A DNA stretch of 64,000 bases from a bacterium (GTDB lineage Bacteria > UBP18 > UBA7526). Made by a program: the position numbers and the translations under genes. Location: contig JAUXAI010000002.1 of NCBI GenBank assembly GCA_030619985.1, forward strand, positions 167 to 64,166, given 5' to 3'. The notes under the pieces are model-generated. The model saw only the letters and a list, made by a program, of their open reading frames with translations. It was not told the origin of the DNA and searched no databases. Positions 16,712 to 43,726 of the stretch are shown piece after piece (the first letter of the stretch is position 1; the number at the start of each line of letters is the position of its first letter).

Positions 16712-16760
16712 TCAGCCTCTTCGGCTGATCCACCGATAAGGTGGAAAAGGGGGTGATAGA

Positions 16761-17048: not shown

Positions 17049-17206
17049 AGCGAACAGTAACGAGCAGACTCTAGAGTAATCAGTAACCAGCCCGCCGAAG
17101 GCGAGGTCTCGCCCCTTTGGGGCGGACGAACAGCCCGTCCTCCGCAGTAGCAGACTACTGCTACGGAGGATGGATAACCAGTTTTTAATTACTGTAAACT
17201 GTTAAC
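17049..17206. repeat. Composite structured spacer (CAGTAAC words plus several GC-rich hairpins)
   Basis: Hairpins cgcc-gaag-gcg, cgcccc-ttt-ggggcg and cctccgcagtagcag...ctgctacggagg, flanked by cagtaac / ttactgtaaactgttaac words. Confidence 0.7.
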
Positions 17207-17225
17207 TCCCGAATGAAATGAGGGT

Positions 17226-17501
17226 ATGATGATTATTGCTAAGGTAACTGGGGTAGTGGTGGCTACTAGGAAGAATAAGCACCTGGAAGGGTATAGGCTT
17301 TTAATTGTCCAACCACTGGATAAAAAATTAAAGCCTGAAGGGAATTCTATGATGGCTGTGGATCAGAGTTATGCCGGTTTCGGGGAGACGGTTTTAGTCA
17401 TTGATGAGGGAAATTCTGCCCGTCAGGTATTCGGCAATCCCGAGATCCCGGTGAGAACTTTTATCGCAGGAGTAATAGACCGCATCGATATTGAAAGTTA
17501 G
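17226..17501 (+). CDS. BMC-P vertex protein (EutN/CcmL family) 3
   Basis: MMIIAKVTGVVVATRK...LLIVQP...AVDQSYAGFGETVL. Confidence 0.8.
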   Translation: MMIIAKVTGVVVATRKNKHLEGYRLLIVQPLDKKLKPEGNSMMAVDQSYAGFGETVLVIDEGNSARQVFGNPEIPVRTFIAGVIDRIDIES

Positions 17502-17562
17502 TTTACAGTAACCAGCGAACAGTAACCAGCAGAAAAGAAACTGTAAACTGGTTACTGGTTAC
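17502..17562. repeat. Word-repeat inverted repeat, CAGTAAC family (near-copy of 2311-2369)
   Basis: tttacagtaaccagcgaacagtaaccagc / ctgtaaactggttactggttac. Confidence 0.8.
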
Positions 17563-17586
17563 TTCCCGAATATGAGGAGTATAGTT

Positions 17587-18417
17587 ATGGCTGAGTTCGA
17601 CGAACTAATAGATAGGATTACTAGGAATGTTATGAGGCGTCTTAGGGAAGAGGATCTTGAAGGTAAGATTAGTCTTCCTATAGCAAGCGTGAATCATATT
17701 ATCTCCGCTGGGGCAGATAGAATAGGAGCTATTCTTGGAGCAAAAACAGACGAAGAGGAGATCGCCCGCACTATTGATCATACCTATCTTAAGCCAGATG
17801 CTACAGTAGAGAAGATTACTCAGTTATGTGAAGAGGCAAAGAAGTATAACTTTGCCACCGTCTGTGTTAATCCCAACTATGTTGCCCTTTGCTCTCAGCT
17901 ATTAAAGGATACCCCAGTAAAAGTGACCTGTGTGGTAGGTTTTCCTTTAGGAGCCACGACCTCTACTGCCAAGGCCATGGAGACCAGGGATGCCATCGCC
18001 AATGGAGCGGATGAGATCGATATGGTGATGAATATCGGGGCTCTGAAGTCAAAGAATTATGATTTGGTAAAGAAGGATATTCAGGCGGTGGTTAATGCCG
18101 CCAATGGGAGGACGGTCAAGGTAATCTTAGAGACCGCATTATTAACTCAAGAAGAGAAGATAAAGGCCTGCCAGATAACCAAGGAAGCCGGAGCAGATTT
18201 CGTCAAAACGAGTACTGGCTTTGGTCCTAGTGGAGCAACGGTAGCCGATGTTGCTCTTATGCGTCGCATAGTTGGTCCCATTATGGGAGTAAAGGCCGCG
18301 GGAGGGATTCGTACCCTTGAGGATGTCCAGGCCCTGCTCAAGGCTGGAGCAACGAGGATTGGTGCCTCAGCAAGCGTAGCTATCATAAAGGGAACTCCAG
18401 CAGAAGCCGGCTACTAA
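17587..18417 (+). CDS. deoC: Deoxyribose-phosphate aldolase with N-terminal encapsulation-peptide-like helix
   Basis: [24 protein letters not shown] and [10 protein letters not shown] (Schiff-base Lys) are present, with N-terminal [18 protein letters not shown]. The start was moved to ATG 17587, downstream of the gagga in the conserved leader. Confidence 0.9.
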
Positions 18418-19747: not shown

Positions 19748-19829
19748 CGCAGATGGCGAGGAGGCATACGGAAAATGGCCGCAGATGACCGCAGATTAAA
19801 ATACAGATGACAATACGAATAAATACGGT
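19736..19829. repeat. CGCAGAT-word array following glyA
   Basis: gacgcagattaacgcagatgg...ccgcagatgaccgcagattaaaatacagatgac. Paired with the ATCTGT words of the downstream leader. Confidence 0.75.
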
Positions 19830-19893
19830 TTATCTGTGATAATCTGTATCCTTTAATCTGTGCTAATCTGTGATTATAAGGAGGTTTACAAAG
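19830..19893 (+). promoter_or_regulatory. 64-nt conserved leader, copy 1 (ATCTGTG words plus TAAGGAGGTTTACAAAG)
   Basis: 63/64 identical to 40881-40944 by my count. The last 51 nt are largely shared with 54758-54808. Confidence 0.8.
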
Positions 19894-21066
19894 ATGGAAA
19901 GAGAGATGATCGCTAAGAGGATGTCCAGGATTGGAACAGAGACCGCCTTCGAGGTCTTGGCAAAGGCCAAGGCCCTGGAAAGAGAAGGAAAGGAGATTAT
20001 ACACTTACAGATTGGGGAGCCGGACTTCGATACTCCAGAGAATATCAAGGAAGCAGGGATTAGAGCGATCAGAGAGAATAAGACCCATTATGGACCCTCT
20101 GCTGGATTGTGGGAAGCAAGGGAGTGCTTTGCCAAATATATCTCAAAAACCAGAAATATCCCGGTTGATCCAGAAGAGGTGGTGGTCACTCCCGGGGGAA
20201 AGCCCATCCTATTCTTCTCCATCTTAGCCTGTATCGATGAGGGGGATGAGGTCCTATATCCCAATCCGGCTTATCCTATCTATGAATCGATGATCAACTT
20301 CGTGGGAGCCAAGGCGGTTCCTATTCCCATACAGGAGGAGAAGGGTTTTGTCTTCGATATCAAAGATCTGGAGGAGAGGATTACCAAAAAGACGAAGATG
20401 CTCGTTCTTAACTCTCCAGCCAACCCTACCAGTGGGGTCATCTCCAAGGAGGGCTTGGAAGAGATTGCCAAGGTCGCTGTGACCAATGATCTCTTGGTTC
20501 TATCTGACGAGATTTACTCTAGGATCATTTACGAAGGGGAGCATCATTCCATCGCCTCCTTTCCCGGAATGAAGGAGAGAACCATCATCTTAGAGGGCCA
20601 CTCCAAGACCTATGCCATGACTGGTTGGAGATTGGGATATGGGGTGATGAATAGAGAGATTGCAGAAAAGGTAACCAAGTTAATGACCAACTCCAACTCC
20701 TGTACCGCAACCTTCACTCAGATTGCCGGAATAGAGGCTATCAATGGGCCACAGGATGCAGTAGACAAGATGGTGGCTGAGTTCAAAAGAAGAAGGGATG
20801 TTATTGTTAAGGGCTTGAATAAGATTCCCAAGATTAGCTGTCGTAACCCCCTTGGTGCCTTCTATGTCTTCCCCAATATAAAGGAGACAGGAAAGAGATC
20901 TCAGGAATTGGCAGACTACCTTCTTAATGAAGCGGGAGTGGCAGTTCTATCCGGGACCTCTTTTGGTGAGTATGGAGAGGGCTATATTCGGCTCTCCTAT
21001 GCTACCTCCATTGAGAATATTAAAAAAGGCCTGGAAAAAATTGAGGCTGGCTTAGCTAAACTTTAG
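19894..21066 (+). CDS. Class I/II pyridoxal-phosphate aminotransferase (aspartate aminotransferase-like)
   Basis: LQIGEPDFDTP, NSPANPTG-like and HSKTYAMTGWRLGY are present. Start moved to the ATG after the taaggaggtttacaaag leader. Confidence 0.8.
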   Translation: MEREMIAKRMSRIGTETAFEVLAKAKALEREGKEIIHLQIGEPDFDTPENIKEAGIRAIRENKTHYGPSAGLWEARECFAKYISKTRNIPVDPEEVVVTPGGKPILFFSILACIDEGDEVLYPNPAYPIYESMINFVGAKAVPIPIQEEKGFVFDIKDLEERITKKTKMLVLNSPANPTSGVISKEGLEEIAKVAVTNDLLVLSDEIYSRIIYEGEHHSIASFPGMKERTIILEGHSKTYAMTGWRLGYGVMNREIAEKVTKLMTNSNSCTATFTQIAGIEAINGPQDAVDKMVAEFKRRRDVIVKGLNKIPKISCRNPLGAFYVFPNIKETGKRSQELADYLLNEAGVAVLSGTSFGEYGEGYIRLSYATSIENIKKGLEKIEAGLAKL

Positions 21067-29371: not shown

Positions 29372-29489
29372 AGTAAGCAGGTGAGCAGGTGGGAAAGTGA
29401 GCAGGTGAGTCGCGGGAAAAAATCTGTGTTAATCTGTGTTTTTTAATCTGTGCTAATCTGTGCATAAAGAGATTTACAAAGAGAAAGAG
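29372..29489. repeat. GCAGGTGAG-word array followed by the ATCTGTG-word leader
   Basis: agtaagcaggtgagcaggtgggaaagtgagcaggtgag ... aatctgtgttaatctgtgttttttaatctgtgctaatctgtg. Confidence 0.75.
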
Positions 29490-30308
29490 ATGATTAGGTT
29501 TACTAAGATGTCTGCCAGTGGGAATGATTTCATTGTGATAGATAATCGAGAAAAGCAGATCCTGGATACTGGATCCTGGATGCTGGATTTTGTTAAAAAA
29601 ATATGTAAACGTAAAATAAATATAGGTGCAGATGGCCTGTTGCTTATTGAAGGCTCAGAAAAGGCAGATTTCAAGATGAGGGTCTTCAATCCCGATGGGG
29701 GAGAGGTTGAGATGTGTGGTAATGGGGCGAGGTGCGTCGCCCTTTGGGCGAAATCAAAAATCAAAAATCAAAAATCAAAATGCAAAATTGAGACCGAGGC
29801 TGGGATTCTGGAAGCAGAGGTCGTCTCTGACAATACAGTAAAACTGAAGATGAGCGACCCTGTTGATACCAGATTGAATTTTAAGCTTTTAGTGGGAGAT
29901 AAAGAATATGAGGTCCACACTATCAACACCGGCGTTCCCCATGTTGTTCTCTTTACAGAGGATTTAGAAAAAGCAAAAGTAAAAGAAATAGGAAAAAAAA
30001 TCAGGTATCACCAGGAATTTGCCCCGGAAGGAACGAATGTCAATTTTATAAGAGTAAGGGATGGGAACTCCCTTGACATCAGAACCTACGAAAGGGGAGT
30101 GGAGGATGAGACCTTAGCCTGCGGGACAGGAGCAGCTGCCTCTGCCATCATCTCCCATCTATTGGGCAGAACAAAAGCCCCCACTAAGATGCATACCAAA
30201 AGCGGTTCTATTCTTACAGTATACTTTGATTTTTCCCACTCTAAGATCACCGATCTTTATTTAGAAGGAGATGCGGAAATTATCTATCAAGGAGTTTTAT
30301 ATGGTTAG
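29490..30308 (+). CDS. dapF: Diaminopimelate epimerase
   Basis: FTKMSASGNDFIVIDN, MCGNGARC and ACGTGAAAS are present. Contains the AAATCAA heptamer array. The stop codon TAG overlaps GGTTAGAA, the first base pairs of junction repeat J1. Confidence 0.85.
   Translation: MIRFTKMSASGNDFIVIDNREKQILDTGSWMLDFVKKICKRKINIGADGLLLIEGSEKADFKMRVFNPDGGEVEMCGNGARCVALWAKSKIKNQKSKCKIETEAGILEAEVVSDNTVKLKMSDPVDTRLNFKLLVGDKEYEVHTINTGVPHVVLFTEDLEKAKVKEIGKKIRYHQEFAPEGTNVNFIRVRDGNSLDIRTYERGVEDETLACGTGAAASAIISHLLGRTKAPTKMHTKSGSILTVYFDFSHSKITDLYLEGDAEIIYQGVLYG
29751..29792 (+). repeat. Intragenic heptamer tandem array (AAATCAA x4 plus 2 degenerate) in dapF
   Basis: aaatcaa x4, then aatgcaa and aattgag, encoding KSKIKNQKSKCKIE. 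Confidence 0.9.
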
Positions 30309-30357
30309 AAATAACCGTAATTGTAATTTCATTAGGCAGATAAACCTAATGTTAGAT
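30304..30357 (+). repeat. Junction repeat J1, copy 1 (starts in the dapF stop codon)
   Basis: GTTAGAAATAACCGTAATTGTAATTTCATTAGGCAGATAAACCTAATGTTAGAT. Confidence 0.8.
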
Positions 30358-30385
30358 TTCATCGTGCAACGTTGAGGAAAAGAAG

Positions 30386-30793
30386 ATGAATATTTTCGAC
30401 TTCCCATTTTCTCATCCAGTTATCTACTGGGGTATAGCCTCACTTATGAGCCTGTATCAAGGAATAAGAGGGATATTTATTCAAAGGCATACCGTTGCCG
30501 TTCAAAATGTCGGGCTAGAAGCTGCCGACCCAAAACGCCAACCATGGACATTGAAAGAGCAAATTATAGTTCATAGAATTCATGACTTCATTTTCAACTT
30601 CGTATGCTCAATTGCCGGATACATAGCGCTGTATGCTATTTGCATAATTTTCCTCGACATAAATGACTTATCAAAAATAGAAACAGGCACAGGGATTATT
30701 CTAAGTTTATTGACTCTTGTATCTTTGGCTGGCATATCCGGGGTACTTCCACCACTGTTACTTTTCGGAAAATTATTTGGAAAAGTAGGATAA
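30386..30793 (+). CDS. Cassette ORF 1: small multi-pass membrane protein
   Basis: 135 aa with 3-4 hydrophobic helices, RBS gaggaaaag and no recognised family. Confidence 0.5.
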   Translation: MNIFDFPFSHPVIYWGIASLMSLYQGIRGIFIQRHTVAVQNVGLEAADPKRQPWTLKEQIIVHRIHDFIFNFVCSIAGYIALYAICIIFLDINDLSKIETGTGIILSLLTLVSLAGISGVLPPLLLFGKLFGKVG

Positions 30794-30801
30794 AAAATAA
30801 A

Positions 30802-30857
30802 ATCTAACAGTTGCTGTAGCTGACTCCTTATTTTTGTAAGGATTTTAATGGTTAGAA
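30802..30857 (+). repeat. attC-like site (weak) after cassette ORF 1
   Basis: ATCTAAC at 30802 and GTTAGAA at 30851. Only a short central stem (tcctta/taagga) is present. GTTAGAC at 30898 is an alternative end. Confidence 0.3.
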
Positions 30858-30904
30858 ATAGCCGTAATTGTAATTTTATTAGTACAGATAAACCTATGTT
30901 AGAC
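30836..30904 (+). repeat. Junction repeat J1, copy 2 (full length, with pseudo-dapF 3' end)
   Basis: GTAAGGATTTTAATGGTTAGAAATAGCCGTAATTGTAATTTTATTAGTACAGATAAACCTATGTTAGAC. The first 15 nt resemble the dapF end caaggagttttatatgg. Confidence 0.8.
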
Positions 30905-30942
30905 GACTGTAACGCCTCATAGAGGCACACGGGAGGGCTCGC

Positions 30943-32031
30943 ATGGTACAGGAAGGATTAAGACTATTCTATTCCTATTCCCACGCAGACGAAGGATTCC
31001 GTAGTCAGCTTGAAAAACACTTGGCAATTCTCCGGCGAAAGGGGAGCATCAGGGACTGGAGCGATCGACGGATTGCTCCCGGAGCTGAGTGGAAGGAAGA
31101 AATTGACAATGCTCTAGAAGCCGCGGACATTATTCTACTTCTAGTCAGCGCTGACTTTCTTGCATCAGATTATTGTTACGACGTCGAGCTGGAACGTGCC
31201 TTAGCCCGCCACAAGAAGGGTGATGCATTGGTCGTACCTATAATTATCAGACCAGTGGATCTCGAAGACTCGCCTCTCGCTGGATTGCAAGCATTGCCGA
31301 CTAACGCGAAAGCAGTCACAACATGGGACAACCGTGACGAGGCTTGGCTTAACGTCGCTCGCGGCATCCGTATCGCCTGCAGTAACATTCAGGAACTCAA
31401 ACGGGGTTCCACAACAGAGAAGGCGGACTCAGCAACCCAGGCACTACTCGAGGAAAAGAAGGCGGATTTTGGAATTTTGGATTTCAGCGCAGAACTCGAA
31501 GTCGCGATGCAGGTTGCCATCGACTGTCAAAATGCCATCACTAAACACACGGAAGAGGTCACAGAGGCACTCCAGTCAGGAACGACTAGAGCACTCCAAT
31601 TGAAGTCCTCCACTATGCCTGGTAAGGCAACTAGACTCCGGCAAATCGCTGGTTCAATGGCTGCCGCTCTAGCCGCATACGCAAAGAAAATAGAGAACAC
31701 CGCCAGCGAGCTAGAGGAATCTTGGGACCGAGTAGACGAGTTCTTGCCTAAGCTACTTGAGCTCAGTGATGTCGAGAAGGAGCGAGAACACGTTCCCGAG
31801 TTGCGGACGACCATTCTAGGTGCGATGGACTCAGTTGAGGGTGCCAGAGAGAGCGCAATGGGGGCCGCGGAATCTCTGGCTGAGCTTGCAAAACTAAGTG
31901 CAGCCCTCAAGATAGGCGCGAATAGGGCCAAGAAGGGAATCCAGGCAGTTGTTGAACAGTACTGGCGGATTGAAAACTCAATGCGGCAGACATTGTCCAG
32001 ACTGGATGACTTGTTCGGTATGAGCGACTAG
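30943..32031 (+). CDS. Cassette ORF 2: TIR-domain protein with alpha-helical C-terminal domain
   Basis: The N-terminal ~145 aa (LFYSYSHADE...ILLLVSADFLASDYCYDVELERAL...VPIIIRP) fit the bacterial TIR_2 pattern, including the conserved Glu. The remaining ~215 aa are Ala/Glu/Leu-rich helical. Confidence 0.8.
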   Translation: MVQEGLRLFYSYSHADEGFRSQLEKHLAILRRKGSIRDWSDRRIAPGAEWKEEIDNALEAADIILLLVSADFLASDYCYDVELERALARHKKGDALVVPIIIRPVDLEDSPLAGLQALPTNAKAVTTWDNRDEAWLNVARGIRIACSNIQELKRGSTTEKADSATQALLEEKKADFGILDFSAELEVAMQVAIDCQNAITKHTEEVTEALQSGTTRALQLKSSTMPGKATRLRQIAGSMAAALAAYAKKIENTASELEESWDRVDEFLPKLLELSDVEKEREHVPELRTTILGAMDSVEGARESAMGAAESLAELAKLSAALKIGANRAKKGIQAVVEQYWRIENSMRQTLSRLDDLFGMSD

Positions 32032-32065
32032 GACAGACAACCCGCCGGCGAGCAGAAAGGAACCC

Positions 32066-32150
32066 GTCTAACTTTGCGTTAACCTGACGGTCGCCCCTGT
32101 CACAGTCCTTGCGGGGCAAGGCGGGCGCCAGGGTCGCCCGCAAGTTATGC
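32066..32150 (+). repeat. attC-like site after the TIR cassette
   Basis: GTCTAACTTTGCG ... CGCAAGTTATGC, with an inner stem cctgacggtcgcc / ggcgccagg. Confidence 0.5.
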
Positions 32151-32154
32151 CGAC

Positions 32155-32197
32155 GTTATCTGACATTTTACACCATCAGAATTTGAATAGCTTTATC
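32155..32197 (+). repeat. Junction repeat J2, copy A
   Basis: GTTATCTGACATTTTACACCATCAGAATTTGAATAGCTTTATC. Confidence 0.8.
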
Positions 32198-32256
32198 GCT
32201 GTAATCGTCTTTCAAAATCTCTGTAATCAGATTCCGAGCGTAGTGAGGATATCTTA

Positions 32257-32290
32257 TAATTTTATTAGTCCAGATAAACCTATGTTAGCA
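32257..32290 (+). repeat. Junction repeat J1, copy 3 (3' half)
   Basis: TAATTTTATTAGTCCAGATAAACCTATGTTAGCA. Confidence 0.75.
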
Positions 32291-32307
32291 GCAATAAAAA
32301 AGGAGGA

Positions 32308-32697
32308 ATGACGATGTCACAATGGGACCAATTACAAATGGATACAAAGGTCACGCAAATATTAAATGTTCAGTCACACGAACCAGGTCATCATTTTGGC
32401 AGACCTTTCTTAACTCCGTATCAAATTGCAATCAGCTTTCAACAACGATTTCCGCAAGATTTCCAAACAATTGGAAAACCAGTTGGAGGAAAAGGAACTG
32501 GACAACAAGACTCTCTTGCGCAATACATTGCCCTTGAACTTTCCAAACGCATTAAAGACAGGAAGATTACCAATATAGAGGGAAGATTTTTGCATCGTGC
32601 AAATCTTCATTCACTTGAATATGAAGTGAATAATCAGATAATTGAATCATCATCGATACAGGCTTACGACTTGTCTATGTTTAGACTGATTGATTGA
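32308..32697 (+). CDS. Cassette ORF 3: hypothetical protein
   Basis: 129 aa, strong RBS aaggagg, no motif recognised. Confidence 0.45.
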   Translation: MTMSQWDQLQMDTKVTQILNVQSHEPGHHFGRPFLTPYQIAISFQQRFPQDFQTIGKPVGGKGTGQQDSLAQYIALELSKRIKDRKITNIEGRFLHRANLHSLEYEVNNQIIESSSIQAYDLSMFRLID

Positions 32698-32706
32698 AAA
32701 TTGAGC

Positions 32707-32778
32707 TGCTAACAAAACGCTGCACCTGACCGCTATTCCGCTGAGCTCCATAGTGGCAGGTGAGATTGGTCATTAGGT
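32707..32778 (+). repeat. Degenerate attC-like site between ORF 3 and ORF 4
   Basis: TGCTAAC ... cacctg / caggtg stem ... ATTAGGT. The last box has A instead of G. Confidence 0.35.
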
Positions 32779-32787
32779 GTAATAAAG

Positions 32788-33354
32788 ATGATTGAAATAC
32801 TTACAGCTATACTTGTCATAGTTACTGGATTTTATGCTTGGGTAACTTTTAAAATTTTAAAGGCAAATGAGTCAGTTCTTAAAGAAATGCGTGGCCAACA
32901 GGAAGCGCTATTTAGGCCATACATCTCTATTTCTCCTGTTGTATACACTGATAATCCAATATTTTTTCTTAAGGTTCACAACACGGGGCGATCATCAGCT
33001 GACAATTTGAGTTTAACAATTGACAAAGATTTTTACCAGTTTGGCGAAAAGAAAGATGACAGAAACTTACGTAATTTCAGTGCATTCTCTAGCAAAATAG
33101 ATAGTTTTGTTCCTAATGCTCAGATGCTTTTTTACTTAGCCCAAGGATTTGTGATTTTCGGTAAAGATGCAAAAAAAGATATAACTCCAAGTATATTTAC
33201 TGTTACTGCGCAGTATGAATTTTCAGGGAAGTCAGTACAAGAGCAAACCGTTATTGATCTTAGACCATACTTCAAGAGTGCTATACCACAAGACCCTATT
33301 GTGTCGAAGTTAAAAGATATAAAGAAAAGTATTGATAAAAAGAAAATCACCTAA
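32788..33354 (+). CDS. Cassette ORF 4: N-terminally anchored hypothetical protein
   Basis: 188 aa with one N-terminal TM helix. Very AT-rich by eye. The TAA stop lies inside the ACCTAAC box. Confidence 0.5.
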   Translation: MIEILTAILVIVTGFYAWVTFKILKANESVLKEMRGQQEALFRPYISISPVVYTDNPIFFLKVHNTGRSSADNLSLTIDKDFYQFGEKKDDRNLRNFSAFSSKIDSFVPNAQMLFYLAQGFVIFGKDAKKDITPSIFTVTAQYEFSGKSVQEQTVIDLRPYFKSAIPQDPIVSKLKDIKKSIDKKKIT

Positions 33355-33434
33355 CAATGGTATCAATCTGGCAGCTTGGCTTGCAGCCAAGTGCCCTCGT
33401 TTCTGTCGGCTGCAGCTTATACCTGTCGTTAGGC
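33349..33434 (+). repeat. attC-like site after ORF 4
   Basis: ACCTAACaatggtatcaatctggcagc ... gctgcagcttatacctgtcGTTAGGC. The arms pair with bulges. Confidence 0.65.
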
Positions 33435-33462
33435 ACACATTAAAATAGATTGCGAGGTTCGT

Positions 33463-33921
33463 ATGAAAATAATTCCTCACAACTTCAGGCATGCCAGAGA
33501 CATTGTCGCATCGAAAGGATTACATGACGAAGTGGATACCATCATAAAGGAGCTGCATCGTGGATGGTTGAAAAAAAAGACTGGCCTTCTTGCTTTTCAA
33601 AAGGAAATCCTCAACAAGTACCGGTGGACACCTGAATATTCCATCGGTATTGAAAATCGAAGATATGCCTATGATGGATTCAAGGAAGGTCTTGCATTTG
33701 AGATTGAATGGAATGTTTCAGAAAAAATACTTGAAGTCATACTAAAAATGCAATTTGGTTTTGTGACAGGCCAGGTCGAAGCTGGCTTGATTGTGAACGT
33801 ACGAAGCGATGCGAAGAATTCGCCCATACCACCAGAAGAAGCCGGTGGTGCAAAAGAGATCGAAGAAATGAAATGCATAATTACTGTGCCACTTTATTTA
33901 GTTGTATTTGGAAAGGATTAA
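33463..33921 (+). CDS. Cassette ORF 5: hypothetical protein, possible PD-(D/E)xK-type nuclease fold
   Basis: 152 aa. YDGFKEGLAFEIEWN gives a D-x8-E-x-E pattern reminiscent of BglII/BamHI-like active sites. This is weak, motif-level evidence only. Confidence 0.4.
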   Translation: MKIIPHNFRHARDIVASKGLHDEVDTIIKELHRGWLKKKTGLLAFQKEILNKYRWTPEYSIGIENRRYAYDGFKEGLAFEIEWNVSEKILEVILKMQFGFVTGQVEAGLIVNVRSDAKNSPIPPEEAGGAKEIEEMKCIITVPLYLVVFGKD

Positions 33922-33944
33922 TACGCATCAAGTGAAAGTGTGGT

Positions 33945-34030
33945 GCCTAACAGTCGCGTGCAGCAGATGACTATGGCTGTCATGCCGGGGCACGCCAGCC
34001 TTGTCACTGCTGAAGCGAAGATCGTTAAAG
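33945..34030 (+). repeat. attC-like site after ORF 5
   Basis: GCCTAACagtcgcgtgcagcagatgac ... gtcactgctgaagcgaagatcGTTAAAG. Confidence 0.6.
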
Positions 34031-34098
34031 AATGTATATGAAATAACAAAAATGCCCAGTAGCAGGACTTCTTTTATCCGCAAACCGTTATGGTCTTC
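34031..34098 (+). other. ORF-less spacer between an attC-like site and junction repeat J1 copy 4 (possible empty cassette)
   Basis: No ORF of useful length. Bounded by GTTAAAG (34024) and the pseudo-dapF-end/J1 copy at 34099. Confidence 0.3.
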
Positions 34099-34167
34099 GT
34101 AAGGATTTTAATAGTTAGAAATAGCCGTAGTTGTAATTTTATTAGTATAGATAAACCTATGTTAGGC
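34099..34167 (+). repeat. Junction repeat J1, copy 4 (full length, with pseudo-dapF 3' end)
   Basis: GTAAGGATTTTAATAGTTAGAAATAGCCGTAGTTGTAATTTTATTAGTATAGATAAACCTATGTTAGGC. Confidence 0.8.
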
Positions 34168-34187
34168 GATAAAAGGAGTAGATAACA

Positions 34188-34631
34188 ATGGTCACATATG
34201 GAATAAATTGGGTTGCTATAGTTGGCATCATTGGAACTTTGGCTGGAGTCTGTGTGGGCGCATTTGTCACTTGGAAGATTCAAGAAAGGCAGTTTAAACA
34301 TTCTGATGCCACACGGTTTCAAAAAGATAGACTTGATACTTATGCACAATATACAGGTGCCGCCAACCTTGCAGTATCTTATTGGATAGTCAACCAACAA
34401 AATCCAGATGCCACTGAAAAGTTTATCGACTTATTTGAGAGGGTACGGTTGGTGGCAACAGATGAAGTTATGAAACACGCCAATTTATTGCATGAGAAAT
34501 TTGGTGAGATTCAAAGACTAGGAAGTGAGACAAAAATACCTGAGAAGAATTTATTAGAATTCAATCTAATTGTTGGAAATTTCGTAAATGCGGCAAGAAA
34601 TGAGTTGCGAATCAGGGAAAACAACTCCTAA
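34188..34631 (+). CDS. Cassette ORF 6: N-terminally anchored hypothetical protein
   Basis: 147 aa, RBS aaaaggag, one N-terminal TM helix then a helical domain. The TAA stop lies inside the TCCTAAC box. Confidence 0.5.
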   Translation: MVTYGINWVAIVGIIGTLAGVCVGAFVTWKIQERQFKHSDATRFQKDRLDTYAQYTGAANLAVSYWIVNQQNPDATEKFIDLFERVRLVATDEVMKHANLLHEKFGEIQRLGSETKIPEKNLLEFNLIVGNFVNAARNELRIRENNS

Positions 34632-34692
34632 CCAGTCACTGCACCCGACCAAAAAACTGGCGCTTTTTGGCGGGTGAGCTTGGATGTTATCT
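34626..34692 (+). repeat. attC-like site after ORF 6
   Basis: TCCTAACcagtcactgcacccgacc ... ggcgggtgagcttggatGTTATCT. Confidence 0.6.
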
Positions 34693-34747
34693 GCAGATCG
34701 TATATTCTGCCGGACTTTGGGTATTCTCTCTGCCCGGACTTATTAGT

Positions 34748-34990
34748 ATGCACAAGAGCCTTGATAATTTCGCAATTCCAAAAGTCAATTTTTTGGTTTA
34801 TGGGGGATTTTCATTTTTAGTAGTAATCCTTGCAATTCTTACTACAATAAATTTTTTCGTTTCTCCGTATAAATCGATATGGAAATTAATAGGTGAGAAT
34901 GTTTGGACACCTATCCTAATATTTCTTGGTATCCTTGTAGTTGGTAACATCGGAAGAGTAGCTGTCATGTCTAAATTTATGAAAAAATAA
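34748..34990 (+). CDS. Cassette ORF 7: small membrane protein (start uncertain)
   Basis: The ORF-track start (TTG 34667) lies inside the preceding attC-like site. ATG 34748 gives an ~80-aa two-TM protein. No clear RBS. Confidence 0.35.
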   Translation: MHKSLDNFAIPKVNFLVYGGFSFLVVILAILTTINFFVSPYKSIWKLIGENVWTPILIFLGILVVGNIGRVAVMSKFMKK

Positions 34991-34994
34991 TTTC

Positions 34995-35049
34995 TCATAA
35001 CAAGGCGCTACACCTGACTGTTACCCACCGCTAATTTCGAATGTTAAGT
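34995..35049 (+). repeat. Short, weak attC-like site after ORF 7
   Basis: TCATAAC ... GTTAAGT 55 nt apart. Internal pairing is poor by eye. Confidence 0.3.
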
Positions 35050-35072
35050 GCTCAGAAAAGAAAGGATTAAGG

Positions 35073-35630
35073 ATGTCATTGCTGAAATTGCTTTTCTCAC
35101 GGAAGTTCAGAACCCTGAGAAAATTACTGTTTGAAGTCCGAATGTTTTGGCCACCATCCCAAGCTGATGATTTTCTCAGCAAACTCCGATTCTTCTCATT
35201 CCTTTTCTACAGTCACGGATTTCTGGGTGTGAATCAAATTCCTGCATTTCCCAATGCATACAAAAATATCACCCCTGATGTGTTTAGAAAAACGTACATC
35301 GTTCTGCCGTTCTACTTTGCCCTACGGTCGGGACTACAAGACTCTAGCTTGACTTCGGTTGAACAGCTAGTAGTCACGCTCTCTCAAAAGTACCCGACTC
35401 TAGACGCTGACATTCTGCAACGACTTTCGTCGGAATGGCAAGACGCGAATCGTGAGGAACTGGATAGACTTCTGTATGAGCAATTCAAAGCTCAAGGGGT
35501 TTTTCGCAAGGTCTTTACTGCAACGGATGCCGAAGTTGAAAAGTGGTTTGGGAATTTCCTCAACCAAACATTTGACCACGCCATGCAGTTTTCAGTTTCA
35601 AGAAGTTCAGCGTCTGCGAATAACACCTAA
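35073..35630 (+). CDS. Cassette ORF 8: hypothetical protein
   Basis: 185 aa, RBS aaaggattaagg. The TAA stop lies inside the ACCTAAC box. Confidence 0.45.
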   Translation: MSLLKLLFSRKFRTLRKLLFEVRMFWPPSQADDFLSKLRFFSFLFYSHGFLGVNQIPAFPNAYKNITPDVFRKTYIVLPFYFALRSGLQDSSLTSVEQLVVTLSQKYPTLDADILQRLSSEWQDANREELDRLLYEQFKAQGVFRKVFTATDAEVEKWFGNFLNQTFDHAMQFSVSRSSASANNT

Positions 35631-35698
35631 CTAGAGCATTCAGGCGACTTGGTGTTCCGCGCTGCCCCACACCAAGCGCCTTATTCCGAGCGTTATCT
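35625..35698 (+). repeat. attC-like site after ORF 8
   Basis: ACCTAACtagagcattcaggcgacttggtgt ... acaccaagcgccttattccgagcGTTATCT. Confidence 0.65.
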
Positions 35699-35730
35699 AC
35701 TATTTTACAACATCAGAATTTAGGATTTTG
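35692..35730 (+). repeat. Junction repeat J2, copy B (diverged)
   Basis: GTTATCTACTATTTTACAACATCAGAATTTAGGATTTTG. Confidence 0.6.
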
Positions 35731-35740
35731 CCAAAATATT

Positions 35741-35781
35741 GTAAGGTCTAGCTTGTTAGTACAGATAAACCTATGTTAGGA
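35741..35781 (+). repeat. Junction repeat J1, copy 5 (internally deleted)
   Basis: GTAAGGtctagcttGTTAGTACAGATAAACCTATGTTAGGA. The downstream ATTTCAT matches copy 1. Confidence 0.7.
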
Positions 35782-35819
35782 TTTCATTGATAGAATTAAT
35801 TCAATCCAAGGAGGTTGAG

Positions 35820-36206
35820 ATGGTTACGGTAGCAGATATTATGACTCGGGAAGTTGTTACCATCCAAGCAAAAGCACCTTTACGAGAGGCTTTATTCAAG
35901 CTGGTCCAAAATAAGATCAGCGGTCTGCCGGTGGTTAACCAAAAGAATGAGCTGGTGGGAATTATTACCGAGAAGGATATGTTAAATTTCATTCTCAGTG
36001 GCAGTCTGCCTCAGACTGTGGTAAAAGAGGCCATGACCAAAGAGGTGATATGCTTCCCTCCTGACACACCCTATGAAAAGCTTTGCCTCAGCTTGATTGA
36101 ACACAACTTCCGGCGCATTCCGATTGTGGAGGGGAAAAAAGTGGTGGGAATCGTAGCCAGGAGAGATTTGCTCCGCGAAATTTCTCGATTTTATGGTCAG
36201 AAGTGA
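35820..36206 (+). CDS. Cassette ORF 9: CBS-domain pair protein
   Basis: VADIMTREVVT...ISGLPVV....LVGIITEKD and ...FRRIPIVEGKKVVGIVARRDL give two CBS motifs. Start moved to ATG 35820 after aaggagg. Confidence 0.7.
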   Translation: MVTVADIMTREVVTIQAKAPLREALFKLVQNKISGLPVVNQKNELVGIITEKDMLNFILSGSLPQTVVKEAMTKEVICFPPDTPYEKLCLSLIEHNFRRIPIVEGKKVVGIVARRDLLREISRFYGQK

Positions 36207-36226
36207 AGGATTTGGTTATAGACAAA

Positions 36227-36293
36227 TCCTAACCCATCGCTCCACTCGACCGTGACTGCTCCGCTGCCCCGGCGAGTGAGATTATTGTTATCT
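36227..36293 (+). repeat. attC-like site after the CBS cassette
   Basis: TCCTAACccatcgctccactcgacc ... ggcgagtgagattattGTTATCT. Confidence 0.6.
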
Positions 36294-36329
36294 GCCATTT
36301 TGCAGCATCAGAATTTGAATAGCTTTATC
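36287..36329 (+). repeat. Junction repeat J2, copy C
   Basis: GTTATCTGCCATTTTGCAGCATCAGAATTTGAATAGCTTTATC, followed by a host-type ATCTGTG leader copy up to 36385. Confidence 0.8.
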
Positions 36330-36430
36330 AGTGCTAATCCGTGTCATTTAATCTGTGCTAATCTGTGAAGATTGCCGAACCCCGCACCAGAACAAGTTCG
36401 GTGCGGGACAGGCTCCGTGAGGCTTATCTT

Positions 36431-36457
36431 ATTAGTACAGATAAACCTATGTTGGGC
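36431..36457 (+). repeat. Junction repeat J1, copy 6 (3' part)
   Basis: ATTAGTACAGATAAACCTATGTTGGGC. Confidence 0.7.
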
Positions 36458-36497
36458 AATCAACCGACGCACAATAGCACAACGGAAAGGAGGAGGT

Positions 36498-36908
36498 ATG
36501 AAGAGACCTACAGTGATTATTGCCGTATTGATGATGCTGACTGTTGGAGTATCATTCCTTGGCTGTTCAAAGCGGGAACAAGGAGCCGTGTTGCTTCAGG
36601 AGGAGCTTGGCACGAGCAAACAAGAAGCCCTAGCCACAAGCGCAAAGGAAGTTGGTGAGTCCGCGCGTACGACAAAGACCAGCGCGGAATTTGTTCTCAA
36701 AAACAAAACTTCATTCTGGTTGACGCTATCTATTGATGGGGAGAAGAGCTGTTCAGCGCCTCCAGGCGATCAATGCGTCGATCTTGTTACCCCTGGATGG
36801 CACAACCTGAAGGCCGAGGAAACATTAAATCCTGAAAATTATGTCACCAGGACTGCTGATATTCCACCTGAGGGCGCAATATGGACAATTACTGAAAAGA
36901 AAAAGTAA
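36498..36908 (+). CDS. Cassette ORF 10: lipoprotein
   Basis: ATG 36498 follows aaaggaggagg. MKRPTVIIAVLMMLTVGVSFLGC has a lipobox. The upstream part of ORF 36372.. is junction-repeat sequence. Confidence 0.6.
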   Translation: MKRPTVIIAVLMMLTVGVSFLGCSKREQGAVLLQEELGTSKQEALATSAKEVGESARTTKTSAEFVLKNKTSFWLTLSIDGEKSCSAPPGDQCVDLVTPGWHNLKAEETLNPENYVTRTADIPPEGAIWTITEKKK

Positions 36909-36968
36909 AAATTTGTGACAAAATAAGACGAAGGAATTCAATAAGAACTCGTTTAGAAAGGAGGTAAT

Positions 36969-37208
36969 GTGATGTCCACCGTTTCGATTATCTTCGGGAT
37001 CTTGGCAGTATTAGGTTACTTTGTGTTCGTTTTGAGTTGGGGCCAACCGTCCTGGGTTTTCTGGGGGTCGATCGCGGCCAGCGCGATTGCCATCGTCACA
37101 GGCTTCTTGACCAGGACCGCTCGCCGCGGAAAGATCGGGCTCATTCTAGGAGCTTTTGGCGTGGTCGTTGGGATCCTCATGATTCTGTATTTCACTTTTA
37201 CTGTCTAA
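36969..37208 (+). CDS. Cassette ORF 11: small two-TM membrane protein
   Basis: 79 aa, RBS aaaggagg. No attC-like site separates it from ORF 10, so they may form a two-gene cassette. The TAA stop lies inside the GTCTAAC box. Confidence 0.5.
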   Translation: MMSTVSIIFGILAVLGYFVFVLSWGQPSWVFWGSIAASAIAIVTGFLTRTARRGKIGLILGAFGVVVGILMILYFTFTV

Positions 37209-37270
37209 CAAGTCGTTGCAACGGACCCTAAACCACGTCGGGTTTAGGGCTCATGCTGGCGAGGTTATAA
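37203..37270 (+). repeat. attC-like site after ORFs 10-11
   Basis: GTCTAACaagtcg ... central perfect hairpin ccctaaacc/ggtttaggg ... ggcgagGTTATAA. Confidence 0.5.
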
Positions 37271-37283
37271 TCTTTCGGCATTG

Positions 37284-37307
37284 TCATGTACCCAACGTGG
37301 TACATGA
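37284..37307 (+). terminator. Perfect 9-bp hairpin at the right edge of the island
   Basis: tcatgtacc-caacgt-ggtacatga. No U-tract follows, so a terminator function is uncertain. Confidence 0.3.
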
Positions 37308-37326
37308 GAGCCACTGAACTCATTTC

Positions 37327-37369
37327 GTTATCTGCCATTTTACACCATCAAAATTTGAATAGCTTTATC
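37327..37369 (+). repeat. Junction repeat J2, copy D (right island boundary, upstream of the dapL-like gene)
   Basis: GTTATCTGCCATTTTACACCATCAAAATTTGAATAGCTTTATC. Confidence 0.8.
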
Positions 37370-37434
37370 TGTGCCCATCTGTGCTTTAGAATCTGTGCTC
37401 ATCTGTGCAGATGGCCGAGCCCCGCGAGGACATA

Positions 37435-38598
37435 ATGATTAAAAGAGCCCGAAGGATAGAGAAACTACCCGTTTACCTCTTTGCCCAGATCGATAGGGCG
37501 AAGAGAGAAGCCATTGCCAAAGGTGTGGATATCATTGACTTCGGAGTGGGGGATCCCGATCTCCCTACCCCTAATCATATCATTGAGGCATTATACAGAG
37601 CCGCCCAGGACCCTAAGAATCATAGGTACCCTTCTTATGAAGGAATGCTCAAATTCCGGGAAGCGGTTGCTTCCTGGTATAAGAAGAGATTTAATGTAGA
37701 ACTGGATCCAGAGAGAGAAGTCCTTACCCTGATCGGAGCCAAAGAGGGGATAGGTCATCTTCCTTTAGCCTTTATAAATGAGGGAGATATCGCCCTCATT
37801 CCCGATCCGGGTTATCCCGTCTATCGGGCGGGAGTGACCTTTGCTGCTGGAATTTCCCATCCCATGCCTTTATTGAGGGAAAATGATTTCCTACCAGATT
37901 TGGGGACCATTGATAGAAAGATCGCTAAGAAAGCAAAATTAATCTTTCTGAACTATCCCAATAATCCCATCTCTAGCGTAGCGAATAAAGATTTCTTCAG
38001 GAAAGTGGTTACATTCGCTAAGGAGAATGATGTTATCGTCTGTCATGATGCCACCTATTCCGAGCTGGGCTACGAGGGCTATAAGCCACCCAGTTTCTTG
38101 GAGATAGCAGGAGCGAAGGAGGTGGGAATAGAATTCCACTCCTTGTCTAAGACCTATAATATGACCGGCTGGAGAATAGGCTTTGCCGTTGGCAATAGTG
38201 ATATCTTGGCTGGGTTGGGAAGCATAAAGACCAATATCGATTCCGGGGTCTTCCAGGCCATTCAGTATGCTGGCATTGAGGCCTTGACTGGTCCCCAGGA
38301 GTGCATCGAAAAGAATGTTGACACTTATAGGGAGAGAAGGGATATCTTGGTAAATGGATTGAATAGACTGGGTTGGGATGTTCCTCTACCAAAGGTAGCC
38401 TTCTACGTCTGGATTCCCGTGCCCAAAGGATATACTTCAGCCAAAATCTGCGAAACTCTTTTGAATAAATGCGGAATCGTCATGACCCCGGGGAACGGTT
38501 TTGGTAAATCTGGCGAAGGTTATATTCGGGCGGCTCTCACAGTCGATAAGTCAAGAATAGAAGAAGCGATAAAAAGAATAGAGAATTTAAAACTTTGA
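37435..38598 (+). CDS. Class I aminotransferase, probable LL-diaminopimelate aminotransferase
   Basis: IEKLPVYLFAQIDR, DFGVGDPDLPTP, NYPNNP and SLSKTYNMTGWRIGF are present. The dapF neighbourhood supports the call. Start moved to ATG 37435. Confidence 0.6.
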   Translation: MIKRARRIEKLPVYLFAQIDRAKREAIAKGVDIIDFGVGDPDLPTPNHIIEALYRAAQDPKNHRYPSYEGMLKFREAVASWYKKRFNVELDPEREVLTLIGAKEGIGHLPLAFINEGDIALIPDPGYPVYRAGVTFAAGISHPMPLLRENDFLPDLGTIDRKIAKKAKLIFLNYPNNPISSVANKDFFRKVVTFAKENDVIVCHDATYSELGYEGYKPPSFLEIAGAKEVGIEFHSLSKTYNMTGWRIGFAVGNSDILAGLGSIKTNIDSGVFQAIQYAGIEALTGPQECIEKNVDTYRERRDILVNGLNRLGWDVPLPKVAFYVWIPVPKGYTSAKICETLLNKCGIVMTPGNGFGKSGEGYIRAALTVDKSRIEEAIKRIENLKL

Positions 38599-39865: not shown

Positions 39866-39970
39866 ACGCAGATGACCGCAGATCCAAACGCAGATGATCG
39901 CAGATATCTGTGCCAATCTGTATCTTTTAATCTGTGTTAATCTGTGTGCCGACTAAAAGGAGGCAAGAAG
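39866..39970. repeat. Word-repeat inverted repeat, CGCAGAT/ATCTGTG
   Basis: acgcagatgaccgcagatccaaacgcagatgatcgcagat / atctgtgccaatctgtatcttttaatctgtgttaatctgtg. Confidence 0.8.
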
Positions 39971-40837: not shown

Positions 40838-40880
40838 GACGCAGATGACCGCAGATAATATTGACGCAGATGACCGCAGA
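40838..40880. repeat. CGCAGAT-word array after the transketolase N-subunit gene
   Basis: gacgcagatgaccgcagataatattgacgcagatgaccgcaga. Confidence 0.8.
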
Positions 40881-40944
40881 TTATCTGTGATAATCTGTAT
40901 CCTTTAATCTGTGTTAATCTGTGATTATAAGGAGGTTTACAAAG
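40881..40944 (+). promoter_or_regulatory. 64-nt conserved leader, copy 2
   Basis: See 19830-19893. Precedes the transketolase C-terminal subunit gene. Confidence 0.8.
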
Positions 40945-41889
40945 ATGACAGAGATGAAAGCGACGAGGGACGGATATGGAGAGGCATTGGTAGAATTGGG
41001 AAAAACCAATCCCAAAGTGGTTGTCTTAGGTGCGGACTTAACCGATTCTACCCGGACATTGTGGTTTGCTGAGAAGTTTCCGGATCGGTTCTTCGAGATC
41101 GGGATTGCCGAGCAGGATATGCTCAATACTGCGGCTGGATTAAGTTTAACGGGCAAGATTCCCTTTGTCTCAACCTATGGGGTATTCATTGCCGGAAGGG
41201 CCTGGGATCAGATAAGGACTACCATCTGCTATGCTAACTTGAATGTCAAGATCGGAGGGGCCCATGGTGGGGTGAGCGTTGGCCCGGATGGTGCCACCCA
41301 CCAGGCATTGGAGGAGATCACCTTGATGAGGGTATTGCCCAATATGAAGGTCATCGTCCCCTGTGATGCCATCGAGACCTATAAGGCGACCATGAAGGCC
41401 GCAGAGATTAAAGGTCCGGTATATATCCGCTTTGGAAGGGAGAAGATACCAGTGATTACTAAGAAGGATACCCCTTTCAAGCTCGGAAAGGCGGCTACTT
41501 TCAGAGAAGGGAAGGACGTCTCTTTGATCGCCTGTGGCTATATGGTCTGTGAATCATTGAAGGCGGCAGAGAAGTTAGAGAAGAAGGGAGTAAGTGCCAG
41601 AGTAATTAACCTTCATACGATAAAGCCCATTGATAAGGAGGCAATTATAAAGGCAGCTAAAGAGACCGGAGCCATCGTCGCCTGTGAGGAACATCAGATC
41701 ATGGGAGGGTTTGGGAGTGCTGTAGCAGAGGTAGTAGTGGAGAACTATCCCGTCCCCATGAGGTTCATTGGCATTCAGGATAGGTTTGGAGAGTCGGGAA
41801 CACCCGAGGAACTGATCAAAGAGTTTAACCTCGATTCTAGCGATATCGTAAAGGCAGTAGAAGAAGTCCTGAAACACAAACACGGATGA
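40945..41889 (+). CDS. Transketolase, C-terminal (pyrimidine-binding) subunit
   Basis: FEIGIAEQDM, GATHQALEE and HTIKPID are present. Start moved to the ATG after the conserved leader. The C-terminal KHKHG is encoded by CACGGAT words. Confidence 0.9.
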   Translation: MTEMKATRDGYGEALVELGKTNPKVVVLGADLTDSTRTLWFAEKFPDRFFEIGIAEQDMLNTAAGLSLTGKIPFVSTYGVFIAGRAWDQIRTTICYANLNVKIGGAHGGVSVGPDGATHQALEEITLMRVLPNMKVIVPCDAIETYKATMKAAEIKGPVYIRFGREKIPVITKKDTPFKLGKAATFREGKDVSLIACGYMVCESLKAAEKLEKKGVSARVINLHTIKPIDKEAIIKAAKETGAIVACEEHQIMGGFGSAVAEVVVENYPVPMRFIGIQDRFGESGTPEELIKEFNLDSSDIVKAVEEVLKHKHG

Positions 41890-43630: not shown

Positions 43631-43726
43631 AAGTAACCAGAAGTTAACAAGTTACAAGTTAACAAGGATATAAGTTAACACGAAACTTACTTATCAACTT
43701 GTCAACTTATTAACTTGTTAACTAAT
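43631..43726. repeat. Word-repeat inverted repeat, AAGTTAAC/GTTAACTT family
   Basis: gaagttaacaagttacaagttaacaagg..aagttaac / cttatcaacttgtcaacttattaacttgttaac. Confidence 0.8.

Follow-up and report, generated by a model that had tools for sequence, protein, structure and literature searches.

A TIR protein with a C-terminal four-helix bundle in a bacterial cassette array: a candidate single-gene anti-phage effector and its domain family

The DNA considered here is a stretch of 64,000 nucleotides, called the window, from an uncultured bacterium of the lineage UBP18, UBA7526 (GenBank assembly GCA_030619985.1, contig JAUXAI010000002.1, positions 167 to 64,166, forward strand). At positions 30943..32031 (+) it carries an intact gene starting with ATG, whose 362-aa product joins an N-terminal TIR domain to a C-terminal four-helix bundle. 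This protein is probably a self-contained single-gene anti-phage effector on a mobile cassette, in which the bundle would regulate a trigger-activated TIR NAD+ glycohydrolase (NADase) acting by abortive infection. The TIR half of the protein is ordinary, and the novelty lies in the family of the C-terminal domain and its fusion pattern. The bundle domain is unnamed in curated libraries, is without a counterpart in the PDB or BFVD, and is found on at least six kinds of N-terminal head in hundreds of sequence clusters.

A major branch of bacterial immunity is coming into view in the single-protein NAD+-depleting sensors (DSR, Swarozyc, Vulcan, and TIR-Avs), and the interesting biology of these proteins resides in the nonenzymatic domain which recognizes the infection. 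As a more tentative proposal, it may be that the bundle represents a new and widespread infection-sensing or assembly module controlling interchangeable heads (TIR, NDT-like, DUF4062/NIR, Cap12-type TIR, Ser/Thr kinase, and OLD-type nuclease), and that the window protein is one member of an undescribed multieffector single-gene anti-phage family spreading as cassettes. Should the bundle be a sensor, a new principle of recognition would be gained once its trigger is identified, and nature's own exchanges of heads are a ready-made experimental design.

The TIR domain and the C-terminal bundle

The open reading frame (ORF) at 30943-32031 had been picked out earlier in a reading made from the letters alone, and the strings LFYSYSHADE, ADIILLLVSADFLASDYCYDVELERAL and VVPIIIRP quoted in that sequence-only reading are present exactly in the translation. 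Its homologues mark it as a genuine gene rather than a chance ORF, since full-length relatives at 47-58% identity exist. These relatives (P0002-P0007) are 361-371 aa long, cover at least 95% of the query length, and were obtained in a search of 5.8 billion proteins, together with more distant full-length members (P0011, P0012, P0015, P0039, and P0053). The 14-sequence family alignment contains 20 invariant positions. A ribosome-binding site, GGGAGGG, is located at 30929-30935 (+), 7 nt upstream of the ATG. The protein shows no signal peptide, secretion motif, or transmembrane segment by sequence analysis. One relative, P0010 (L009 2232-3260), is devoid of approximately residues 10-55 of the TIR domain, including the first helix and strand, whereas its C-terminal bundle is complete; the copy may be decaying, or its start may have been mis-called. 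Viral contigs gave two TIR-only matches and zero full-length relatives, and the alignment of the C-terminal domain was too divergent for a pattern scan of these contigs.

The composition of the gene differs from that of its surroundings. The ORF has a GC content of 0.518 and an observed/expected CpG ratio of 0.94, as compared to 0.46 and 0.62 in the whole window and to a GC content of 0.34-0.44 in the neighboring small cassette ORFs. The impression of a foreign composition, which had been formed by eye, is therefore correct.

The TIR domain (residues 6-157; 30958..31413, +) has a flavodoxin-like beta-alpha fold and is identified consistently by Pfam, PADLOC, structure prediction with AlphaFold2 (AF2), and Foldseek. 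Pfam TIR_2 (PF13676) matches residues 9-119 with 58.7 bits (E=1e-15; cut-off 28) and PF01582 TIR with 30.4 bits (cut-off 21.3), and a weak match to ThsB_TIR is also present. The PADLOC ThsB1 model (PDLC00420) matches residues 8-169 with 186 bits (E=1.8e-55), and this match is confined to positions 4-164 of the 319-position model, that is, to its TIR half. The AF2 model of the TIR domain, built on the 14-sequence alignment, places strands at residues 6-11, 36-40, 63-68, and 96-101 with helices between them, and the full chain has a mean predicted local distance difference test score (pLDDT) of 83.8. When the AF2 model was compared to the PDB by Foldseek, only TIR domains and the related DNPH1/NDT fold were retrieved, with probability 1.0 and template-modelling (TM) scores, normalized by the target, of up to 0.70. 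These matches include Hydra TRR-2, TLRs, the plant proteins L6 and RUN1, AbTir, SARM1, and SPARTA. By sequence, the closest solved proteins are Cat1 (E=1.6e-7), the plant TIR protein AT1G72930, and AbTir.

A glutamate had also been proposed at the catalytic position, and the alignments bear this out. E82 (GAG, 31186-31188, +) is one of the invariant positions of the family and aligns with the Glu of 'NYELD' in AbTir, of 'D-ELEQ' in Cat1, and of 'D-ELV' in AT1G72930. The alignment of this residue suggests that the domain may carry out NAD+ glycohydrolase or cyclase chemistry. Hundreds of N-terminal TIR domains fused to TPR, WD40, CHAT, and AAA/STAND modules are 55-65% identical to this TIR subtype; the N-terminus is where an effector domain is typically placed.

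The TIR domain is followed by a flexible acidic linker (residues ~155-176; 31405..31470, +), with pLDDT below 50 at residues 155-170, which leads into a near-invariant G177-x-x-D180-F motif. In the 42-sequence alignment of the C-terminal domain, G177 is conserved in 98% and D180 in 100% of the sequences, and across the family the G-x-x-D-F/Y motif opens helix 1 of the bundle. Other conserved bundle positions are E186, T203, A229, A236, A240, Y246, A247, W261, L287, L315, S319, and L322. The bundle itself (residues 177-358; 31471..32016, +) consists, in the AF2 model, of four helices of about 45 residues each, at ~178-222, 228-274, 277-316, and 320-358. When the C-terminal domain was modelled alone from the 42-sequence alignment, a pLDDT of 95.9 and a predicted TM score (pTM) of 0.88 were reached. 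The final 217 residues contain 14% Ala, 11.5% Glu, and 11% Leu and are predicted to be entirely helical, as had been anticipated from the letters. The bundle is soluble, acidic (isoelectric point ~5), and hydrophilic, with no transmembrane segment or hydrophobic hairpin; the maximum 19-residue hydropathy peak corresponds to a beta-strand of the TIR domain.

That no recognized domain occurs in this region had been stated as well, and the library searches agree. No Pfam, NCBIfam, or PADLOC family reached its cut-off over the C-terminal domain, either in the window protein or in the other members scanned, and neither a housekeeping nor any other curated family was recovered. The Pfam scan of the 42 aligned members gave 43 different weak matches, none of which was found in more than two members; among the candidates, Hydro_N_hd (22 bits, below the cut-off of 27) was seen in only 1 of the 42 and was dismissed. 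A sequence-profile search of the PDB with the bundle returned coiled-coil noise only, such as syntaxin and designed bundles. Foldseek comparisons of the bundle gave nothing significant against the PDB (best E=0.15, TM up to 0.45, with designed bundles and weak ClyA-family toxins) or against BFVD (best E=0.07). Since HEPN domains, too, are four-helix bundles, marked by an Rx4-6H motif, a HEPN-like bundle was considered; it was dropped, as this motif is absent from the window protein and inconsistent across the family.

A constant domain with variable heads

The relatives of the bundle were collected by searching 1.84 billion cluster representatives (clusters at 50% identity) exhaustively with a profile, the window protein being the seed; an earlier word-indexed homology search with the C-terminal profile had given only 4 proteins. 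At E<=1e-3 the family comprises 1994 representatives, of which 506 remain at E<=1e-10 and 13 at E<=1e-30. With few exceptions these matches run over the full ~195 positions, and the relatives match over 190-200 positions with E-values down to 1e-73. In the source databases these proteins are labelled 'hypothetical'.

A census of the N-terminal heads was taken on the best 150 cluster representatives. The head most often found, in 91 of the 150, is nucleoside-2-deoxyribosyltransferase-like (NDT-like) and also matches the PADLOC CBASS 'Effector TIR' model. TIR_2 heads follow (15), then DUF4062 (10), a Ser/Thr kinase of the PD-T4-6 type (3), and single cases of a CAP12/Pycsar-type TIR (PDC-S35) and of an OLD/GajA-like ATPase-TOPRIM. 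Membrane anchors are present in a few representatives, and 18 have little or no N-terminal sequence. Among the top representatives with a sizeable N-terminus, about nine-tenths bear a TIR-superfamily N-glycosidase head. The C-terminal domain behaves, in this regard, as a swappable module. Such a layout, in which the C-terminal domain stays the same and the enzymatic heads vary, is that of sensor-plus-effector defense proteins, and the head repertoire (Cap12-TIR, DUF4062, PD-T4-6-like kinase, and OLD/GajA-like) is characteristic of phage defense. The suggestion made earlier that the C-terminal domain may be a sensor or an oligomerization module gains support from this distribution, the same domain being carried by NDT-like, DUF4062, Cap12-TIR, kinase, and OLD-type heads.

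The gene had further been supposed to stand alone, and its surroundings are in line with this. Among the 52 other ORFs of the window, no ThsA, SIR2, SLOG, or other PADLOC defense partner was found; the PADLOC matches among them are a housekeeping adenosine deaminase and two marginal ones (E=7e-8) to C3a186 'C-3,4 desaturase'. The 10 other ORFs of the cassette array in which the gene lies have no PADLOC match. Nothing is conserved across the eight homologue contexts either, and the TIR-bundle protein is therefore a stand-alone unit.

The settings of the homologues are those of mobile defense genes. The variable spot that holds P0003 and P0004 follows a Peptidase_M14 gene and contains DUF6602, AAA_15, SIMPL, and AbiEii genes in shuffled order. 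P0010 adjoins a phage-type integrase and methyltransferases. Of the NDT-headed members, one is near EcoRII/Vsr/Dcm restriction-modification genes and a HEPN gene and another near transposase fragments, and one DUF4062-headed member is near HigB and a helix-turn-helix (HTH) gene. The distant homologue P0053 adjoins a ThsB_TIR+SLATT pair inserted in an ilv operon.

Some of these loci have features of their own. The P0003 gene, which comes from an unrelated genome, is bracketed by a direct repeat of 88 nt (77% identity; L001 7804-7891 and 9401-9488), and the gene order around it is shuffled with respect to the related locus L005, which suggests that the P0003 gene is also a mobile single-gene module with different flanking repeats. 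Directly upstream of P0053, within the ilv biosynthesis operon, the genes for ThsB_TIR (169 aa) and SLATT (287 aa) overlap at their ends (L006 6513-7885); together with P0053 they form a small defense islet. SLATT was considered as a conserved partner of the distant subgroup and rejected, the gene immediately upstream of P0012 being unrelated to the SLATT gene of P0053. An unannotated 618-aa gene is located 79 nt after the NDT-headed P0130 in two independent contigs (L165 8144-10000 and L166 1253-3109), and it may be a lineage-specific partner for the P0130 branch.

Proposed mechanism, named systems, and rival explanations

In uninfected cells, the TIR domain would be a NAD+ glycohydrolase, acting through E82, which is kept off by the bundle. 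The bundle would serve as the regulatory module, either by recognizing an infection cue or a phage component directly or by driving assembly. Higher-order assembly would be needed for the TIR active sites, which in such a scheme are composite sites formed in head-to-tail TIR arrays. Upon triggering, the bundle would gather the TIR domains, NAD+ would be depleted, and the infected cell would arrest before phage release, which is the outcome of abortive infection.

Several points weigh against this reading. The strongest hidden Markov model match of the protein is to the Thoeris ThsB model, and ThsB makes signals rather than depleting NAD+. The relative orientation of the TIR domain and the bundle is not predicted with confidence (full-chain pTM 0.51), and the bundle shows no recognizable ligand- or protein-binding feature by which a sensor could be told apart from a mere oligomerization scaffold. 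Finally, the association with defense islands is drawn from a few contexts and not from enrichment statistics.

By analogy, the protein resembles the single-protein NADase sensors, yet it would lie outside every named system. In Swarozyc, the C-terminal auxiliary domain of a DUF4062 TIR-like NADase binds the phage portal, which turns the enzyme on, and a large active assembly is formed (bioRxiv 10.64898/2026.05.01.722283). Like the Swarozyc protein KpSwz, the window protein is one polypeptide with an N-terminal TIR-superfamily domain bearing the catalytic Glu, has no partner gene, and continues through a helical stalk or linker into a C-terminal nonenzymatic domain, which in Swarozyc is required for defense; DUF4062 heads, moreover, occur in other members of the bundle family. 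However, the head is TIR_2 here, DUF4062 (NIR) being absent from the Pfam matches, and the auxiliary domain of Swarozyc is of the HTH/winged-helix type, whereas a four-helix bundle is predicted here. In Vulcan, the same NADase as in Swarozyc is joined to HEAT repeats, the trigger being a small protein of the phage (10.64898/2026.09.04.749371). The window protein differs from it in the same way at its head and has no HEAT-repeat tail; neither an HTH nor a HEAT match was obtained for the C-terminal domain in Pfam scans or with Foldseek.

With Thoeris ThsB the protein shares a TIR sequence close to the ThsB1 model; conversely, only the TIR half of that model is matched, the C-terminal domain is different, and no ThsA or other effector is found in the operon, the window, or the homologue contexts. 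Membership in Thoeris was rejected, as no effector gene is linked to the TIR gene in the array, the window, or those contexts. Cat1 is a NADase whose sensor is a CARF domain, which reads the cyclic-oligoadenylate signal from type III CRISPR. It (CRISPR-associated TIR 1, PDB 9mud) is the best solved TIR relative by sequence, has the same catalytic Glu motif, and likewise fuses the TIR domain to a sensor domain, for which the bundle is the candidate in the window protein. The depositors of the Cat1 PDB entries named them pentagonal filament assemblies. In contrast to Cat1, neither a CARF domain nor a CRISPR locus or cyclase is present here. In Tcp proteins such as AbTir, a coiled-coil dimerization region is combined with a TIR NADase. 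The window protein is similar to these (AbTir, TcpB/BtpA) in joining a TIR domain to an alpha-helical, probably oligomerizing region, and AbTir is retrieved by both sequence and structure. In contrast to the Tcp proteins, the helical part is C-terminal here and belongs to a conserved 185-residue four-helix-bundle family instead of being a short coiled coil, and the gene lies in the cassette array of an environmental bacterium, not in a pathogen effector locus. The sequence-only reading had likewise matched the domain combination to no named system, and no membership in Thoeris, Swarozyc, Vulcan, Cat1, or Tcp was found.

The match to ThsB1 raises the question of whether the protein is a Thoeris-like signal generator, producing a messenger derived from NAD or of the cyclic ADP-ribose type for an effector encoded elsewhere in the genome, with the bundle as the sensor of a ThsB-like protein. 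ThsB1 is indeed the best defense-library match of the protein, as it is of the homologue P0003; the weak ThsB_TIR match in Pfam points the same way, and P0053 adjoins a pair, TIR+SLATT, recently proposed as a Thoeris configuration in a survey of TIR systems. This explanation is nevertheless unlikely. The ThsB1 match stops at the TIR half of the model. Within 30 kb of the TIR gene on either side, the window encodes neither ThsA nor a Macro, SLOG, or other candidate effector, and no neighbor is kept across the eight contexts. Kinases and an OLD-type nuclease, which act as terminal effectors and do not make signals, carry the bundle as well, and the TIR subfamily serves mostly as the N-terminal effector of TPR, WD40, CHAT, and AAA proteins. 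In the same survey, standalone TIR proteins were set aside with other non-Thoeris contexts, as they likely deplete NAD+ rather than signal. About equally improbable is a non-immune role, in which the TIR domain would be a toxin or an NAD enzyme (an addiction module stabilizing the array, a Tcp-like interbacterial or host-directed effector, or a regulator of the NAD pool) and the bundle a constitutive dimerizer. The architecture of AbTir-type Tcp proteins and the presence of AbTir among the PDB matches are compatible with such a role; toxin-antitoxin cassettes are common in chromosomal cassette arrays, and no defense phenotype is known for the bundle family. However, the protein has no signal peptide, secretion motif, or transmembrane segment, no antitoxin-sized gene next to it is conserved, the domain order is opposite to that of Tcp proteins and the repertoire of partner domains is characteristic of phage defense.

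Two further explanations are much less probable than these. The bundle could be the killing module, unfolding into membranes like ClyA, Hbl, or MLKL, with the TIR domain as its switch. The top Foldseek matches do include alpha-pore-forming toxins of the ClyA family (AhlB/C, MakA/E, SmhB, and ClyA) and a designed membrane-lytic bundle, and single weak Hbl matches appeared in the PDB profile search and in the Pfam scan of the members. Yet all ClyA-type matches are insignificant (E>=0.15, TM<=0.45), the acidic and hydrophilic bundle has no hydrophobic hairpin, and a second effector would be redundant, since the N-terminal partners are already effector enzymes; we regard this as very improbable. 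There is likewise little chance that the gene is a silent or decaying cassette, an intact-looking ORF without expression or function in its host. The foreign composition, the failure to identify an integrase or a Pc promoter in the window, and the loss of part of the TIR domain in the relative P0010 would fit with it. On the other side, the frame is full length and keeps every family-invariant residue, the ribosome-binding site is good, and the stop of an upstream leader ORF lies 20 nt from the start codon. An anti-phage TIR NADase regulated by the bundle is thus preferred, and the setting of its gene is described below.

The cassette array and the rest of the window

The gene is part of an array (30300..37400, +) of about 11 small co-oriented ORFs, flanked on the left by dapF (29460-30308) and on the right by an aminotransferase gene (37405-38598; Pfam Aminotran_1_2). 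The best matches of DapF are 53-55% identical to it and come from Syntrophales, Planctomycetia, Omnitrophota, and Poribacteria alike. Most ORFs of the array (+ strand, 30.3-37.4 kb) are followed by a site of the form CCTAAC...(imperfect palindrome)...GTTAxxx, which resembles attC. Apart from the site of the TIR cassette, the array holds at least eight further attC-like sites, six copies of a repeat called J1, and four copies of a repeat called D7. When seven of the other attC-like sites were folded as bottom-strand DNA, five had z-scores from -2.2 to -3.7, and two, with z-scores of -1.2 and +0.4, were unremarkable. The Rfam scan of the whole window gave no matches.

The attC-like site of the TIR cassette (32066..32161, +) is unlike its neighbors in being GC-rich (64%; 0.642). 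Its inner imperfect inverted repeat spans 32081-32146, where AAC (32081-32083) pairs with GTT (32144-32146) and one base is bulged. Folded as bottom-strand DNA, this hairpin reaches -24.2 kcal/mol (z=-2.6), a value which 3 of 200 shuffles equalled. An R'-like GTTATGC is found at 32144-32150 and an outer pair is formed by GTCTAAC (32066-32072) and GTTATCT (32155-32161); the R' (GTTATGC) and R'' (CGTTAAC) of the site deviate from the attC consensus.

Upstream of the TIR gene lies J1 copy 2 (30833..30906, +), an AT-rich conserved leader which ends with GTTAGAC (30898-30904). The composition switches from AT-rich and host-like to GC-rich right after the GTTAG of this copy (30898-30902) and back again after the attC-like site. 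The stretch between about 30899 and 32146 thus has the appearance of a single imported cassette. The bounds proposed in the sequence-only reading, J1 copy 2 and an attC-like site, are retained as positions, the GC-rich hairpin (32081-32146) lying downstream of the gene; J1, however, is a leader or attI-like repeat and not a classical cassette boundary. The description as a single cassette agrees with an array of attC-like sites, and it has to be set against the lack of an integrase in the 64 kb window.

The six J1 copies (30286-30359, 30833-30906, 32250-32289, 34096-34169, 35741-35780, and 36417-36456) were delimited from the direct-repeat families D10 and D11 and a six-copy alignment. Copy 2 bears a short ORF (30848-30922, +) encoding MVRNSRNCNFISTDKPMLDDCNAS, which stops 20 nt before the TIR start codon. 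The J1 core ATTAGTnnAGATAAACCTATGTT is found exactly at 69 sites in 66 metagenome contigs (loci L098-L163). Its left side is conserved up to ~95 nt, and the sequences diverge completely right after GTTAG(G). J1 contains three GTTAG direct repeats, like DR1/DR2/R of attI1. It also contains a ribosome-binding site, AGGAGG, and a short ORF (MVRNSRNCNFISTDKPML...) across the junction, which usually stops 0-25 nt before the downstream start. J1 does not qualify as an attC site. It seems to unite an insertion point resembling attI with a leader for translational coupling, although six copies are present in one array.

No integron integrase or tyrosine-recombinase motif was found in the 64 kb window, either in the six frames or by tblastn with a recombinase, and no Pc promoter was identified in it. 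The array is at best of the type called cluster of attC sites lacking integron-integrases (CALIN), or else its integrase is more than 29 kb away. In another contig, L155, a co-oriented Xer-like tyrosine recombinase (7065-7964, +) ends ~100 nt upstream of J1 (8071), and the J1 short ORF continues in frame into a 210-aa ORF. Its score is 207 bits with XerD, as compared to 103 bits with the model of integron integrases (cut-off 265). This recombinase may serve J1 sites, and it is seen at 1 of the ~38 sites with enough upstream sequence. The recombinases adjoining P0010 and the J1 of L155 are of the Xer or phage type and fall below the integron-integrase cut-off.

As in the integron cassettes of sedentary chromosomal integrons, a compact single ORF is followed here by an attC-like imperfect palindrome of its own, in a co-oriented array and with a foreign composition. 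The differences consist in the lack of an integrase in the 64 kb and in the six interspersed attI-like J1 leaders, which are no feature of described integrons. Integron cassettes are documented stores of anti-phage genes (bioRxiv 10.1101/2024.07.02.601686), and the present setting adds a non-Vibrio case, from an uncultured lineage, of a defense-type gene in an attC cassette array.

The repeat D7 (GTTATCTGCCATTTTACACCATCAGAATTTGAATAGC...; 32155-32253, 35693-35740, 36287-36385, and 37327-37425) starts at the R'-like GTTATCT of four attC-like sites. Its last copy is directly upstream of the housekeeping aminotransferase gene, which suggests that the native region preceding this gene was duplicated together with cassette blocks. 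A further cassette ORF of 152 aa (33463-33921, +) has a weak match to BglII endonuclease (PF09195, E=7e-4, below cut-off), with no adjacent methyltransferase.

The 52 remaining ORFs of the window belong to housekeeping metabolism, including a microcompartment cluster, SHMT, acetate kinase, transketolase, and others. The microcompartment cluster (~10300-18400) comprises three EutN/CcmL paralogues (11531, 16433, and 17226), BMC-domain shell proteins, a phosphate propanoyltransferase, and aldehyde-related enzymes, and it is unrelated to the TIR gene. In many intergenic regions throughout the window, short tandem-like arrays of 12-mers lie just upstream of start codons, for example at 19829-19896, 29416-29486, 39903-39970, 40880-40947, and 54748-54814; at 2298-2376, 10209-10302, and 17489-17570; and at 43654-43723, 60781-60850, and 63431-63500. 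The 12-mer unit families vary with the region of the window and include AATCTGTG(C/A)T, the complement-like CGCAGATGAC, GTAACCAG/ACTGTAAAC, and AACTTATCAAC. These arrays may be operator or promoter-associated repeats of the lineage.

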